From assembly GCF_051903065.1 (NCBI RefSeq), contig NZ_CP178438.1: a stretch of 64,000 nt of DNA; one strand, written 5' to 3'. Each line of letters begins with the position of its first letter. Positions within the stretch are counted from its first letter, which is position 1. Positions 4,158 to 21,937 of the stretch are shown one piece after another. This stretch comes from Escherichia coli (GTDB lineage Bacteria > Pseudomonadota > Gammaproteobacteria > Enterobacterales > Enterobacteriaceae). The notes beneath the pieces were generated by a model, which searched no databases, was not told the DNA's origin, and worked only from the letters and a program-made list of their open reading frames with translations. The translations under genes were made by a program, and so were the position numbers.

Positions 4158-4462
4158 ATCCAGCTTGCAAGGAAAATAACGCCCGCTTGGTATGTGCGCG
4201 TTTTCTTATTCCACAAACTGCAAGGAGGTAAATCATGACAAATCCTTTATCAATGACTCTTTGCAGACCTTTCCAGGATTAATTCTTTTTTTCTTGCCCT
4301 GGATTCGTCTGCCATTTCCTGATTTTTATATTTATATACTCTAAATAATTCGAGTTGCAGGAAGGCGACAAGCGAGTGAATCCCCAGGAGCTTACATAAG
4401 TAAGTGACTGGGGTGAACGAACGCAGTCGCAGTTCATGCAACTTGAAGTATGACGAGTATAA

Positions 4463-5011
4463 ATGGAATGGTACATGGGCAAATATATTCGTCCCTTATC
4501 CGATGCGGTATTTACCATCGCATCTGATGACCTGTGGATCGAGAGTTTAGCGATCCAACAATTACACACCACGGCAAATTTACCCAACATGCAGCGCGTA
4601 GTGGGGATGCCAGATTTACACACCCCGGACGCGGCTACCCGATTGGCGCAGCGTTCTTCTCTGTTGGTCGTTTTTACCCGGCAAGACGTCGCGGTAACGG
4701 TGCTGGAAACCGAAGCCGGGCGTTATCCTGACACGCTGCGTTCGTCGGGGCCGGGCGGTCAACATGTCAATAAAACCGACTCGACGGTACGCGCCACGCA
4801 TTTGGCATCCGGTATTAGCGTGAAGGTTCAGTCAGAGCGTAGTCAGCATGCTAACAAGCGGCTGGCACGATTGCTGATTGCCTGGAAGCTGGAGCAACAG
4901 CAACAGGAAAATAGCGCAGTGCTGAAATCGCAGCGGCGAATGTTCCATCACCAGATTGAACGTGGCAACCCGCGACGGACATTCACAGGGATGGCTTTTA
5001 TCGAAGGATAA
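4463..5011 (+). pseudogene. prfH: ykfJ-prfH remnant (RtcB-like fragment fused to release-factor homologue with internal deletion)
   Basis: C-terminal half carries the GGQ release-factor motif ([13 protein letters not shown]) and PrfH tail; the segment between RSS and GPGGQ appears deleted. Confidence 0.7.
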
Positions 5012-5023
5012 TGAAGGATGAAA

Positions 5024-5055
5024 CTGCCGGAAGGCGATTAAACGCCATCCGGCAG
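5024..5055. terminator. bidirectional hairpin terminator between prfH and pepD
   Basis: CTGCCGGAAGGCG...CGCCATCCGGCAG inverted repeat between convergent genes. Confidence 0.55.
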
Positions 5056-5067
5056 CAAATCAAATAA

Positions 5068-6525
5068 TTACTTCGCCGGAATTTCTTTCAGCAGTTCAGT
5101 CAGCAGTGTCCAGTAATGACCTACGCTTTCGATGTGAACTTGCTCATCCGGAGAGTGTGGACCGGTGATTGTTGGCCCGATAGAAACCATGTCCATTTCC
5201 GGATACGGTTTTTTGAACAGACCACATTCCAGGCCCGCGTGGATAATCTGGATGTTCGGCGTCTTGTTGAACAGGCGCTGATAGGTTTCACGTACCAGAT
5301 GCATCACCGGAGAATTAGCGTCCGGCTGCCAGCCAGGATATGCGCCTTTTGCTTCGGTTTTCGCGCCAGCCAGTTTACCCAGCGAATCCAGCATGCTCAC
5401 CACGTAGTCTTTACCGCTGTCGATCAGAGAACGGATCAGGCAGTGAATTTCTACGTTATTGTCAGTCATGGTCACCACACCGACGTTCAGGGAGGTTTCG
5501 ACCACACCTTTTGCCACGTCGGAATTGCGGATCACACCGTTCGGGGTGGCGTTCAGCAGACGAATAAAGGTATCGCGAGATTTCGCAATCAGGGCAGCTT
5601 TATCGTTCGCAACAGAGTCCAGCAGCAATGCCAGATTCTTCTCTTTTTCTGCCAGCTCGTTTTTCAGGATCTCCTGATAGGTATTCACCAGAGATTTCAG
5701 TGCGTCGACTTTATCAGCTGCGACAGCAATGGTCGCAAAGGCTTCACGCGGGATGGCGTTACGCAGTGTACCGCCGTTGAAATCGATAAGGCGCAGATCC
5801 AGTTCTTCTGCATGACCCGCCAGGAAGCGCACCAGCAGTTTGTTGGCATTACCGAGGCCAACGTGGATTTCACCGCCGGAGTGACCGCCTTTCAGACCTT
5901 TTAAGGTTAACTTGAAGGTTTCAAAACCAGCTGGAACCGCTTCACGATCTAAATGCAGGTTGGAGGTGAAGTCGATACCCCCCGCGCAACCCATGTAGAT
6001 TTCACCTTCTTCTTCGGAGTCGGTGTTAATCAGAATATCAGCCTGCAACCAGTTGCTCTGTAAGCCAAAAGCACCGTCCATACCGGCTTCTTCGGTCATG
6101 GTCAGCAGCACTTCCAGCGGACCGTGAACCACGTTTTCGTCAGCCAGAACCGCCAGTGCAGAGGCCATACCAATGCCGTTATCCGCACCCAGCGTGGTGC
6201 CGCGCGCTTTAACCCATTCGCCATCAATATAAGGCTGGATAGGATCTTTCGTGAAGTCATGCACGGTGTCGTTATTTTTCTGCGGCACCATATCGAGGTG
6301 GGCCTGCAAGACGACCGGTTTACGATTTTCCATACCTGCTGTAGCAGGTTTACGAATCAGGATATTACCTACCTGATCGCGTTCGACATGGAAACCTTTC
6401 TCTTTTGCCCAACCAACAATGTATTCAGCGAGTTGCTCTTCATGATAGGACGGGTGAGGAATAGAACAGATTTTGGCAAAAATATCCCACAGCGGCTGTG
6501 GAGATAATTGAGACAGTTCAGACAC
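5068..6525 (-). CDS. pepD: aminoacyl-histidine dipeptidase (cytosol nonspecific dipeptidase)
   Basis: 485 aa, M20-family motifs, N-terminus MSELSQLSPQPLWDIFAKICSIPHPSYHEE. Confidence 0.95.
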   Translation of the reverse strand: MSELSQLSPQPLWDIFAKICSIPHPSYHEEQLAEYIVGWAKEKGFHVERDQVGNILIRKPATAGMENRKPVVLQAHLDMVPQKNNDTVHDFTKDPIQPYIDGEWVKARGTTLGADNGIGMASALAVLADENVVHGPLEVLLTMTEEAGMDGAFGLQSNWLQADILINTDSEEEGEIYMGCAGGIDFTSNLHLDREAVPAGFETFKLTLKGLKGGHSGGEIHVGLGNANKLLVRFLAGHAEELDLRLIDFNGGTLRNAIPREAFATIAVAADKVDALKSLVNTYQEILKNELAEKEKNLALLLDSVANDKAALIAKSRDTFIRLLNATPNGVIRNSDVAKGVVETSLNVGVVTMTDNNVEIHCLIRSLIDSGKDYVVSMLDSLGKLAGAKTEAKGAYPGWQPDANSPVMHLVRETYQRLFNKTPNIQIIHAGLECGLFKKPYPEMDMVSIGPTITGPHSPDEQVHIESVGHYWTLLTELLKEIPAK

Positions 6526-19270: not shown

Positions 19271-19834
19271 ATGAGGCTAACCGTGGGTAAGCATCACTGG
19301 AAAATAGAAAAACAGCCTGAGTGGTACGTGAAAGCTGTCAGAAAAACTATCGCGGCGTTGCCGGGTGGTTACGCTGAAGCGGCTGACTGGCTCGATGTAA
19401 CAGAAAACGCTTTATTCAACCGCCTTCGTGCAGATGGCGATCAGATTTTCCCGCTGGGATGGGCAATGGTTTTACAGCGTGCTGGTGGCACTCACTTCAT
19501 TGCTGATGCTGTGGCGCAGTCTGCAAATGGCGTCTTTGTGTCTCTTCCTGACGTCGAGGATGTGGACAACGCCGATATCAACCAACGCCTGCTGGAAGTC
19601 ATTGAACAGATCGGCAGTTATTCAAAACAGATTCGTTCAGCAATTGAAGACGGTGTAGTGGAACCGCATGAGAAGACAGCAATTAACGATGAGCTGTACC
19701 TCTCAATTTCGAAGCTGCAGGAGCATGCAGCACTGGTCTACAAAATCTTTTGCGTTTCAGAAAGTAGTGACGCCCGCGAGTGTGCAGCTCCGGGCGCCGT
19801 GGCGTGTCGTGACTGTGGAGAAACTAACGCATGA
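19271..19834 (+). CDS. CII-like regulatory protein (CP76/YdaT-like), tentative
   Basis: 187 aa, position immediately after cro; family assignment from memory only. Confidence 0.45.
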
Positions 19835-20169
19835 ACAGTTTAACAACACACTACCGTCGCTCGCAACTGATTGCGCTTCCTGTACCGGGTGGAAAAGCGA
19901 AGGTGGAGTATTGCTATGCAGTAAATGTACCAGGTGACAGGGAAATTGTAACCCACAGCTTTGCAGAGTGGGCTGTGGGTGATTTCAACCGGCAGAAGGA
20001 GACAGTCCTTTGCGACAAGTTAACCGCTGGTTCAAAGATCACTACGGAGTGCCCGTCAGAGTCATTCGTTGGGAGCCGGAAACACAACGGGTTATCTACC
20101 TCCGTGAAGGCTATGAGCATGAGTGCTTCAGCCCGCTCGAACAGTTTCGTCGTAAATTCAGGGAAATAG
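19831..20169 (+). CDS. hypothetical protein, possibly frameshifted
   Basis: 112 aa ORF; an alternative frame (19983-20189) encodes ...[55 protein letters not shown], overlapping the next start. Confidence 0.35.
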
Positions 20170-20178
20170 AGGTCGGTC

Positions 20179-21120
20179 ATGAGCACTAAATTAACCGGCT
20201 ATGTATGGGATGGTTGCGCTGCGTCAGGCATGAAATTATCCAGCGTGGCAATTATGGCCCGCCTGGCTGATTTCAGTAATGACGAAGGTGTGTGCTGGCC
20301 ATCAATTGAAACCATTGCCCGTCAGATTGGCGCGGGGATGAGTACCGTCAGAACGGCTATCGCACGGCTGGAAGCAGAAGGCTGGTTAACGCGTAAGGCG
20401 CGTCGCCAGGGTAACCGCAATGCGTCGAATGTTTATCAGCTTAACGTTGCGAAGCTTCAGGCAGCGGCATTTTCTCAACTGTCAGATTCTGACCCGTCAA
20501 AATCTGACGCATCAAAATCTGACCCGTCAAAATTTGATGCGTCGAAATCTGGCAAAAAAGCGGGTTTTCACCCGTCAGAATCTGGCGGGGATCCGTCAGT
20601 AAAATCAAAACATGATCCGTCAGATAAAAAAACTTCTCGTCCGGACGCTTCGCAACCGGACACGCAGACGGCTGAACAGGAGTTTTTAACTCGCCATCCT
20701 GATGCGGTTGTATTCAGCCCTAAAAAGCGCCAGTGGGGAACGCAGGATGATTTGACCTGCGCACAGTGGCTCTGGAAAAAAATCATCGCCCTGTACGAGC
20801 TGGCCGCCGAATGTGACGGCGAGGTGGTTCGTCCCAAAGAACCGAACTGGACAGCCTGGGCAAACGAAATTCGCCTGATGTGTGTGCAGGATGGTCGTAC
20901 TCACAAACAAATCTGCGAGATGTACAGCCGCGTCAGCCGCGATCCGTTCTGGTGCCGTAACGTGCTCAGCCCGTCGAAGCTGCGGGAAAAATGGGATGAG
21001 CTTTCCCTGCGCTTATCGCCGTCCATCAGCACATACACAGAAAAACGCGAAGACCCGTATTTCAAATCCAGTTACGACAACGTGGACTACAGCCAGATCC
21101 CGGCAGGATTCAGGGGGTGA
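20179..21120 (+). CDS. replication initiation protein (O-like)
   Basis: 313 aa, N-terminal HTH region, low-complexity SKSD repeats, conserved C-terminal domain; iterons within the gene. Confidence 0.75.
   Translation: MSTKLTGYVWDGCAASGMKLSSVAIMARLADFSNDEGVCWPSIETIARQIGAGMSTVRTAIARLEAEGWLTRKARRQGNRNASNVYQLNVAKLQAAAFSQLSDSDPSKSDASKSDPSKFDASKSGKKAGFHPSESGGDPSVKSKHDPSDKKTSRPDASQPDTQTAEQEFLTRHPDAVVFSPKKRQWGTQDDLTCAQWLWKKIIALYELAAECDGEVVRPKEPNWTAWANEIRLMCVQDGRTHKQICEMYSRVSRDPFWCRNVLSPSKLREKWDELSLRLSPSISTYTEKREDPYFKSSYDNVDYSQIPAGFRG
20470..20600 (+). repeat. origin iterons within the replication gene
   Basis: Tandem CCGTCAAAATCTGA-like repeats (at least five) followed by an A-rich stretch. Confidence 0.65.
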
Positions 21121-21611
21121 GCATGAGTCTTTTGAATGAAGTTCAGAAATTCATTGAAGCCCATCCGGGCTGTACTTCCGGAGACATTGCGGATGCTTTT
21201 GCAGGTTACTCACGGCAGCGCGTTCTGCAGTCAGCAAGCAAGTTACGTCAGAGTGGGCGTGTGGCTCACCGTTGTGAAGGGGATACACGCAGACATTTCC
21301 CGCGCCTGACTGAGAGAGCGCAGGAGCCGGAACCACAACCAGTTCGTGAAACCAGACCTGTGCGCAATTTCTATGTCGGCACTAACGATCCACGGGTGAT
21401 TTTGTGCCTGACCCGCCAGGCTGAAGAACTGGAGTCCAGGGGCCTATACCGTCGTGCTGCAACGGTGTGGATGGCGGCATTCCGTGAAAGCCACTCCCAG
21501 CCAGAACGAAACAATTTTCTGGCGCGTCGTGAGCAGTGCTTACAGAAAAGCAGCAAGCGCGCTGCATCGGGTGAAGAGTGGTATCTGTCAGGGAATTACG
21601 TGGGGGCGTAA
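21117..21611 (+). CDS. PerC-like transcriptional regulator, tentative
   Basis: 164 aa; motif GLYRRAATVWMAAF resembles the PerC/Pch family as I recall it. Confidence 0.4.
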   Translation: MSMSLLNEVQKFIEAHPGCTSGDIADAFAGYSRQRVLQSASKLRQSGRVAHRCEGDTRRHFPRLTERAQEPEPQPVRETRPVRNFYVGTNDPRVILCLTRQAEELESRGLYRRAATVWMAAFRESHSQPERNNFLARREQCLQKSSKRAASGEEWYLSGNYVGA

Positions 21612-21937
21612 TGACGACGTTAACTCAATGCCAGCAGCAGGTGCTGGATATGCTGATTTCTTATCAGAAAGAACGTGGCTTCCCGCCAACCAATCAGGAG
21701 GTGGCTACCATGCTGGGATACCGTTCAGTGAATGCAGCGGTGGAGCATCTTCGCGCACTGGAGAAAAAAGGCGTCATCACGATAAAGCGTGGCGTGGCAC
21801 GGGGGATAACGCTTCATACCGCGGTGAAGGACGACGACAGCGAGGCGGTCGGGATTATCCGCTCACTGCTTGCCGGTGAGGAAAACGCCAGGCTGCGTGC
21901 AGCCCACTGGTTACATGAGAGGGGCCTGAAAGTATGA
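21611..21937 (+). CDS. LexA N-terminal DNA-binding-domain protein
   Basis: MTTLTQCQQQVLDMLISYQKERGFPPTNQEVATMLGYRSVNAAVEHLRALEKKGVI parallels the LexA N-domain; no S24 peptidase domain. Confidence 0.6.
   Translation: MTTLTQCQQQVLDMLISYQKERGFPPTNQEVATMLGYRSVNAAVEHLRALEKKGVITIKRGVARGITLHTAVKDDDSEAVGIIRSLLAGEENARLRAAHWLHERGLKV

Follow-up and report, generated by a model that had tools for sequence, protein, structure and literature searches.

Which genes are encoded at positions 19831-20189 of a 64,000-nucleotide stretch of Escherichia coli DNA (contig NZ_CP178438.1 of RefSeq assembly GCF_051903065.1; the whole stretch is hereafter called the window), where two overlapping reading frames on the same strand lead into the start of a prophage replication gene? 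An earlier note on this DNA had put forward two answers for the second frame, a frameshifted gene or a short TTG- or GTG-initiated open reading frame (ORF). We propose, with a probability of roughly 0.75, that the region holds two independently initiated, out-of-frame prophage genes, ymfM and a gene of the DUF4222 family, that both are translated, and that the overlapped tail of ymfM serves translational coupling. The overlap is composed of the following elements:

19831-20169, plus strand: ymfM ORF, ATG start, 112 amino acids (aa), stop TAG at 20167-20169 (from the ORF list)
19831-20009, plus strand: part of ymfM outside the DUF4222 gene, aa 1-59, with the conserved N-domain at about aa 1-52
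19996-20001, plus strand: Shine-Dalgarno (SD) sequence AAGGAG of the DUF4222 gene, 8 nucleotides (nt) 5' of the TTG (from the sequence)
20010-20189, plus strand: DUF4222 gene, TTG start, 59 aa, in the -1 frame relative to ymfM (RefSeq WP_001250269.1 has the same coordinates)
20010-20169, plus strand: dual-coding segment of 160 nt, in which the ymfM tail (part of codon 60 to codon 112 and the stop) lies over DUF4222 codons 1-53

The coordinates read in the earlier note, a 112-aa ORF ending at 20169 and a second frame open from 19983 to 20189, are borne out by the sequence. The second frame, offset by -1 (+2) from ymfM, opens behind a TGA at 19980-19982 and ends with a TAA at 20187-20189, so that it reaches 20 nt past the end of ymfM; its earliest start codon is the TTG at 20010. 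As the note had also seen, it overlaps the start of the replication gene, whose ATG at 20179 lies inside it (11 nt, ATGAGCACTAA). The description of this frame as protein-like has found strong support. Its 59-aa product is a full-length match to the Pfam family DUF4222 (PF13973), with a score of 69 bits (cut-off 27; E = 2.6e-19) and with profile positions 1-52 of 53 covered by residues 9-62 of the 68-aa open frame. The same ORF matches phrog_1343 and is annotated, with exactly these limits, in RefSeq. In Klebsiella, Salmonella, Citrobacter, Enterobacter and others, its homologues occur as separate proteins of 59-70 aa. AlphaFold2 predicts a small five-stranded beta-barrel with one helix (mean predicted local distance difference test score, pLDDT, of 83.5). 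In a Foldseek search of this model against the PDB, the nearest structures were KOW, Tudor and SH3 domains (template modeling scores of 0.55-0.69), i.e., generic barrels only, with no match at E <= 0.001.

The 112-aa ORF is ymfM. Its counterpart in K-12 MG1655 (b1148, 'cell division inhibitor YmfM') also has 112 aa and differs in three residues, all of them in the tail. It matches phrog_1170 over positions 1-112 (E = 2.9e-70) and sits between ymfL and the replication gene, as in K-12. The N-domain is conserved at the protein level in Klebsiella, Pantoea, Citrobacter, Mixta and Izhakiella, and AlphaFold2 models its residues 11-60 with moderate confidence (pLDDT 74-85) as three strands and a helix, for which a Foldseek search against the PDB returned no usable match (best E = 2.4). 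The tail of about 53 aa is rich in Ser and Thr and predicted to be disordered (pLDDT below 50). In PHROGs, the 112-aa form, a 63-aa form consisting of the N-domain only and DUF4222 make up three separate families, all three of the category 'unknown function'.

Comparison with relatives argues that the second frame has a start of its own. Relatives with a single uninterrupted ORF in the first frame only, which the earlier note had named as evidence against its reading, are not what the comparison showed: both frames are kept. The two-frame layout persists at about 73% nt identity and beyond, in Klebsiella phages, Raoultella, Atlantibacter and Pantoea phage AH07, and also, from read assemblies and viral contigs, in three more lineages whose host is unknown. 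In 12 diverged lineages a DUF4222 start codon is found at the homologous position (seven ATG, four GTG and one TTG), ATG or GTG being used in the Klebsiella, Raoultella, Atlantibacter and Pantoea relatives, and purine-rich, GGAG-type SD-like motifs precede it in most of them. Among 39 E. coli-type haplotypes both the SD sequence and the TTG are invariant, and the spacer differs in one. Other phages have the two units apart. In phiNP-type loci (L005, L090-L092, L098-L114) an N-domain ORF of about 65 aa is followed by a Rha gene, and DUF4222 then stands directly before the replication gene; the Rha gene between the two units measures about 700 nt. This separated layout is seen in Citrobacter phage phiNP, Klebsiella spallanzanii, Izhakiella, Mixta and many viral contigs. 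A profile scan of genome contigs with the N-domain alignment yielded only six loci. By these comparisons the second frame appears to be a separately initiated gene, in which neither a programmed nor a mutational frameshift takes part, and the short TTG/GTG-initiated ORF suspected earlier can be equated with the DUF4222 gene at 20010-20189.

Polymorphism within E. coli tells which frame is under selection in which part of the region. The 39 haplotypes mentioned above derive from 80 loci of 97.5-100% identity in a viral-contig scan. Across the N-domain region (19831-20009), 11 of the 12 variable sites fall on ymfM codon position 3, all 16 variant alleles are silent for ymfM, and the 39 haplotypes encode one protein sequence. 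The overlap (20010-20169) has 15 variable sites, nine of which are at DUF4222 codon position 3; of the 16 alleles found here, 10 leave the DUF4222 protein unchanged and 13 alter the ymfM product. Six distinct DUF4222 sequences are found, vs. 17 distinct ymfM tails. The selected frame switches at about position 20010: purifying selection acts on each region in the frame proper to it, and the amino acids of the ymfM tail can vary freely. Over longer distances, among eight diverged lineages, the share of identical-amino-acid codons that differ is 0.52 in DUF4222, 0.50 in the cII-like gene and 0.36 in the N-domain. Since the value of DUF4222 matches that of the cII-like gene, the amino acids of the tail exert no detectable constraint on the silent sites of DUF4222.

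What the tail avoids is a stop. We compared an overlap class, in which the N-domain ORF abuts DUF4222 in its +1 frame (12 non-redundant lineages below 90% nt identity), with 14 control lineages that have either a Rha gene between the units or the N-domain in another frame. None of the 12 overlap lineages has a ymfM-frame stop within the first 52 codons of DUF4222, compared to one to six in each of the 14 controls. When codons are reshuffled synonymously with the DUF4222 protein held fixed, 1.7-3.0 stops per lineage are expected and the probability of an open frame is 0.02-0.13. The avoidance can be followed to single codons: a Val or Leu codon ending in G or A creates a TGA or TAA in the ymfM frame if the next codon starts with A. 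In this stop-creating context, G/A-ending and C/T-ending Val/Leu codons number 0 and 32 in the overlap class vs. 34 and 24 in the controls (Fisher p = 2e-9, with lineage counts that are phylogenetically non-independent). Before codons starting with C or T, the corresponding numbers are 12 and 10 in the overlap class and 13 and 7 in the controls; within the overlap class, the A context differs from the C/T context with a Fisher p of 2e-6. Simple inheritance of an open frame is unlikely because of this within-gene contrast and the high silent-site divergence.

The codon statistics point to ymfM and DUF4222 as a dual-coding pair in which both frames are maintained by selection. The earlier note did not foresee that selection keeps the 112-aa ORF as well; both frames appear to be used. 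The locus thereby provides a clear natural case of a gene whose overlapped part is constrained only to be stop-free, with a ban on G/A-ending Val/Leu codons in the partner gene that is complete, context-specific and gone once the genes are separated. It may serve as a model in which to study the effect of overlap on codon choice and perhaps also translational coupling over a long range to the replication initiator of a phage.

How could such an arrangement operate? Translation of ymfM would start at the ATG that overlaps the ymfL stop and give an N-domain of about 52 aa plus a tail of about 53 aa, while that of DUF4222 would begin at its own, weaker start, the internal TTG behind AAGGAG. That both frames are translated is suggested by their evolution. 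What may keep the tail open is the place where ymfM translation has to end rather than the sequence of the tail: ribosomes that enter at ymfL/ymfM would travel across the nested gene and be released at the start of the replication gene, resulting in termination-reinitiation coupling. The flanking elements that matter for this proposal are:

19271-19834, plus strand: ymfL-like gene of a cII-family regulator (Pfam Phage_CP76, E = 1.4e-13; RefSeq name ymfL)
20167-20181, plus strand: junction with the replication gene, consisting of the ymfM TAG (20167-20169), an SD-like GAGG (20169-20172) and the replication gene ATG (20179-20181) (from the sequence)
20179-21120, plus strand: replication initiator (lambda O-like) gene, 313 aa, with matches to HTH_36, DnaD_N and RP-C and with 15-nt iterons at about 20467-20590

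Coupling to the replication gene, already suggested in the earlier note, is compatible with the sequence, in which stops and starts lie close together as expected of a coupled gene chain. The ymfL stop TGA (19832-19834) and the ymfM ATG overlap as ATGA in the sequence, and both the ymfM and the DUF4222 stop lie near the ATG of the replication gene. Across the lineages that were examined, the end of the ymfM-type ORF lies at -9 to +11 nt from this ATG (for L128 after manual correction of a mis-called ATG) and the DUF4222 stop falls at +4 to +44 nt; in the window the ymfM stop is 9 nt before the ATG. In addition, the ymfM end tracks the replication gene ATG in both existing arrangements, whether ymfM shares the frame of the replication gene (e14 type) or has a different one (L095 type).

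Several points weigh against this reading. Translation of either frame is deduced from evolutionary evidence only. Coupling is only one possible reason for the avoidance of stops, as a tail needed at the protein level for its length, disorder or composition would leave the same signature. The replication gene may not depend on ribosomes arriving from upstream, because it has an SD-like GAGG of its own. The Fisher p-values overstate the significance, because the lineages are not independent. Finally, in L119 and L120 a variant N-domain ORF stops before DUF4222 and the +1 frame is open anyway, and in L102 the +1 frame is open with no N-domain ORF detected upstream.

The alternative that survives best is nested in the two-gene model and competes only with the coupling rationale. 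It holds that the tail is kept for a role at the protein level that depends on its length or composition, e.g., as a disordered linker, a degradation signal or a part of the division-inhibiting activity, and not for the delivery of ribosomes. The stop-avoidance data are equally compatible with such a role, the tail has the Ser/Thr-rich, disordered character that it would require, and over-expression of ymfM from K-12 leads to filamentation (bioRxiv 10.1101/2020.11.19.390815). We nevertheless regard it as rather unlikely, since the N-domain homologues of phiNP-type loci manage with tails of 10-25 residues, since DUF4222 third positions, which are the second positions of the tail, diverge as fast as the neighboring gene, and since the end of the ORF follows the replication gene ATG irrespective of the two frame arrangements.

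A more radical alternative accepts only DUF4222 in the overlap. Functional ymfM would then be the N-domain and the 53-codon tail an accidental, unselected run-on. Such an accident would readily explain a tail that is unconstrained in sequence (17 variants in the 39 haplotypes, 13 of 16 alleles non-synonymous) and predicted to be disordered, and it agrees with the existence of N-domain ORFs of 62-78 aa in other lineages and with the open +1 frame of L119/L120, into which no ORF reads. Yet an accidental run-on should have met its 1.7-3 stops in each of the 12 diverged lineages, all of which lack them, and it leaves unexplained why G/A-ending Val/Leu codons are wholly avoided in the stop-creating context only and why stops occur at the expected rate once the genes are separated. 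As about half of the identical-amino-acid codons differ between lineages, the open frame is not simply inherited either. This makes an accident improbable, and we retain the model of two translated genes.

The frameshifted gene of the earlier note fares considerably worse. A programmed -1 ribosomal frameshift from ymfM into DUF4222 would produce a fusion of the N-domain with DUF4222. The geometry allows it, as the DUF4222 frame is -1 to ymfM and open 27 nt 5' of the TTG; an internal AAGGAG could stimulate frameshifting, as in dnaX; and databases do hold a few fused single-frame proteins of 102-152 aa. However, scanning the ymfM frame for an X XXY YYZ slippery heptamer in the window and 11 other lineages gave none, and a stimulatory RNA structure is not apparent, as 19960-20080 folds at -33.7 kcal/mol compared to a mean of -35.6 kcal/mol after shuffling (z = 0.48) and thus no more strongly than shuffled sequence. 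In L093 a stop in the DUF4222 frame stands 3 nt before its GTG. The fused proteins have a different junction in each case and all but one come from raw read assemblies only, which fits sporadic indels or assembly errors. With a conserved start codon in 12 lineages and the Rha gene between the units in phiNP-type phages, we reject a frameshifted single gene and consider the programmed variant highly improbable. A pseudogene, in which a mutation in this strain or in E. coli has broken an ancestral single gene into two halves that look coding in different frames, is practically refuted by the same layout at 73% nt identity in Klebsiella phages as well as in Pantoea, Raoultella, Atlantibacter and the three lineages of unknown host, by purifying selection on both parts within E. 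coli and by the absence of an unbroken form among the relatives.

The proposed pair of ymfM and DUF4222 can be placed beside three known systems. In the Rz/Rz1 pair of phage lambda, a small gene with its own ribosome-binding site sits within another gene of the same strand in a different frame, and both frames are kept. The layout is the same here, but both Rz and Rz1 are constrained and interact with each other, whereas the overlapped part of ymfM is free in sequence and only has to be free of stops. Lambda G/GT and dnaX are cases of programmed -1 frameshifting. The likeness consists of overlapping frames related by -1 and of an internal SD-like element; ymfM/DUF4222 differs by having neither slippery heptamer nor stimulatory structure, and by a downstream frame that has its own start and is a separate gene elsewhere. 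Overlapping stop and start codons, as in ATGA-type operon junctions, give translational coupling. Such junctions are found here between ymfL and ymfM (ATGA) and where the DUF4222 stop lies over the start of the replication gene (ATGAGCACTAA in the window, ATGA in other lineages). The difference is that two upstream ORFs in different frames end at a single replication gene start, one of them by reading through the other gene. The pair adds one more case to a type of gene overlap that is already known, and its interest is modest to moderate: both ORFs are already in public databases, and out-of-frame nested genes are familiar from phages. What is new for the DUF4222 family is its fixed place directly 5' of, and overlapping, the start of the replication initiator gene, together with its nesting inside ymfM.

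Current annotation shows one member of the pair at a time. The NCBI Prokaryotic Genome Annotation Pipeline (PGAP) annotates only DUF4222 (WP_001250269.1) and not ymfM in all 90 E. coli rows listed of 2709 matching RefSeq records, while the K-12 reference record has only ymfM and no DUF4222 gene. The two major annotations thus conflict: PGAP leaves the coding region of the conserved N-domain (19835-20009) unannotated, and K-12 omits a conserved gene of a Pfam family. In the GenBank records of Citrobacter phage phiNP (L005, approximately 2382-2564) and Klebsiella phage P7641 (L002, 1677-1856), the DUF4222 ORF is intact and conserved and has no annotation.

This conflict reaches into the phenotype assigned to the locus. 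In prophage e14 of K-12, ymfM has the same neighborhood (ymfK, ymfT, ymfL, ymfM, replication gene) and contains an identical 59-aa DUF4222 ORF; the difference lies downstream, where the replication gene is a chimeric pseudogene (ymfN/oweE) in e14 and intact in the window. The e14 gene has been given the 35-year-old SfiC phenotype, i.e., SOS-associated inhibition of cell division. Ansari et al. obtained filamentation with the ymfM 'open reading frame' in pBAD24 and assigned the SfiC phenotype to ymfM (bioRxiv 10.1101/2020.11.19.390815). If their clone is the annotated 339-nt ORF, it would also carry the SD sequence, the TTG and 53 of the 59 DUF4222 codons. The genomic fragments of two earlier ymfM screens contain both ORFs, and ymfM deletions remove most of DUF4222 if they span the annotated ORF. 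Since the clone and, apparently, the deletions affect the nested gene as well, the assignment of SfiC is confounded by DUF4222, and either product may be responsible. The ymfM literature examined mentions neither a second frame nor a frame-specific mutant (these texts were not searched for the name DUF4222), and a literature search for ymfM together with ribosome profiling returned no paper, with neither ribosome-profiling nor proteomic data found. A tentative extension of the coupling model, which we consider possible though we do not favor it, is that the tail is a stop-free 'conveyor' without sequence requirements whose sole job is to carry ribosomes to the start of the replication initiator gene. 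The SfiC activity would in that event belong to the N-domain alone or to the DUF4222 barrel, and inhibition of division would not be a property of the whole annotated 112-aa protein.

Some smaller observations concern the DUF4222 gene and its overlap. Its AAGGA can pair with a UCCUU just before or within the TTG (19995-20012) to form a small hairpin with a 5-nt loop, which could mask the initiation site until ribosomes pass in the ymfM frame; this hairpin is not conserved in relatives, and overall folding of the region is unremarkable. In one haplotype among the 80 E. coli-type loci (L007-L086), DUF4222 is cut short by a stop at codon 13 and ymfM is intact, which represents either a natural knock-out or a sequencing error. 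On the minus strand, an antisense ORF of 90 aa (19914-20186) runs in register with the DUF4222 codons. The same ORF is open in K-12 (90 aa), a Klebsiella phage (95 aa), Pantoea AH07 (117 aa) and phiNP (122 aa), and polymorphisms do not favor its frame. It is probably a by-product, because its openness requires only the absence of TTA, CTA and TCA codons on the sense strand. In Escherichia phage PhiR47_1 (L178, 1301-2670), an annotated 383-aa 'Rha protein' that begins with MNSLTAN reads in the +1 frame through a remnant of DUF4222 DNA before it enters the Rha domain, and is probably an over-extended call; the O gene of this phage is immediately preceded by an ORF of 75 aa with a DUF4222-like motif (PLIAFRS). 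With regard to ymfM, the silent-site divergence of the N-domain (0.36, for 19831-19989) is below that of both the cII-like gene and DUF4222, which suggests either an additional constraint at the nucleotide level or a recent recombinational exchange of this module.

The surrounding region is the immunity and replication part of an e14/SfII-like lambdoid prophage of E. coli, with the order cI-like repressor, cro-like gene, ymfL, the two ORFs discussed here and the replication gene. The e14 type has ymfM in frame with the replication gene and only the TAG and three codons between the two, so that read-through of the TAG would fuse both products. We reject a YmfM-Rep fusion of this kind, as the frames differ in the L095/L097/L116/L117 type and the feature is thus not conserved. 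Between ymfL and the replication gene, a promoter scan for an analogue of lambda oop/pO gave no promoter-like site, and a terminator scan gave one weak terminator-like site on the minus strand, vs. 1.1 expected by chance. The replication gene is named 'DNA replication protein O' in phage records and contains, at 20467-20590, five or six direct repeats with a 15-nt spacing and a consensus of about TCAAAATCTGACCCG, which are typical of the iterons of a lambdoid origin; an Rfam search at E <= 1 returned only a spurious miRNA match on these iterons, far under the gathering score. Downstream of the replication gene, a PerC-like ORF (21117-21611) is directly followed by a LexA-like ORF (21578-21937) in the window. 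NZ_CP028381 (L001) matches the window with 100% identity over 19700-20300 and has a gene of 654 nt for an adenine methyltransferase between the PerC-like and the LexA-like ORF (L001 positions 4418-5888); the gene content downstream of the replication gene looks mosaic in this comparison.

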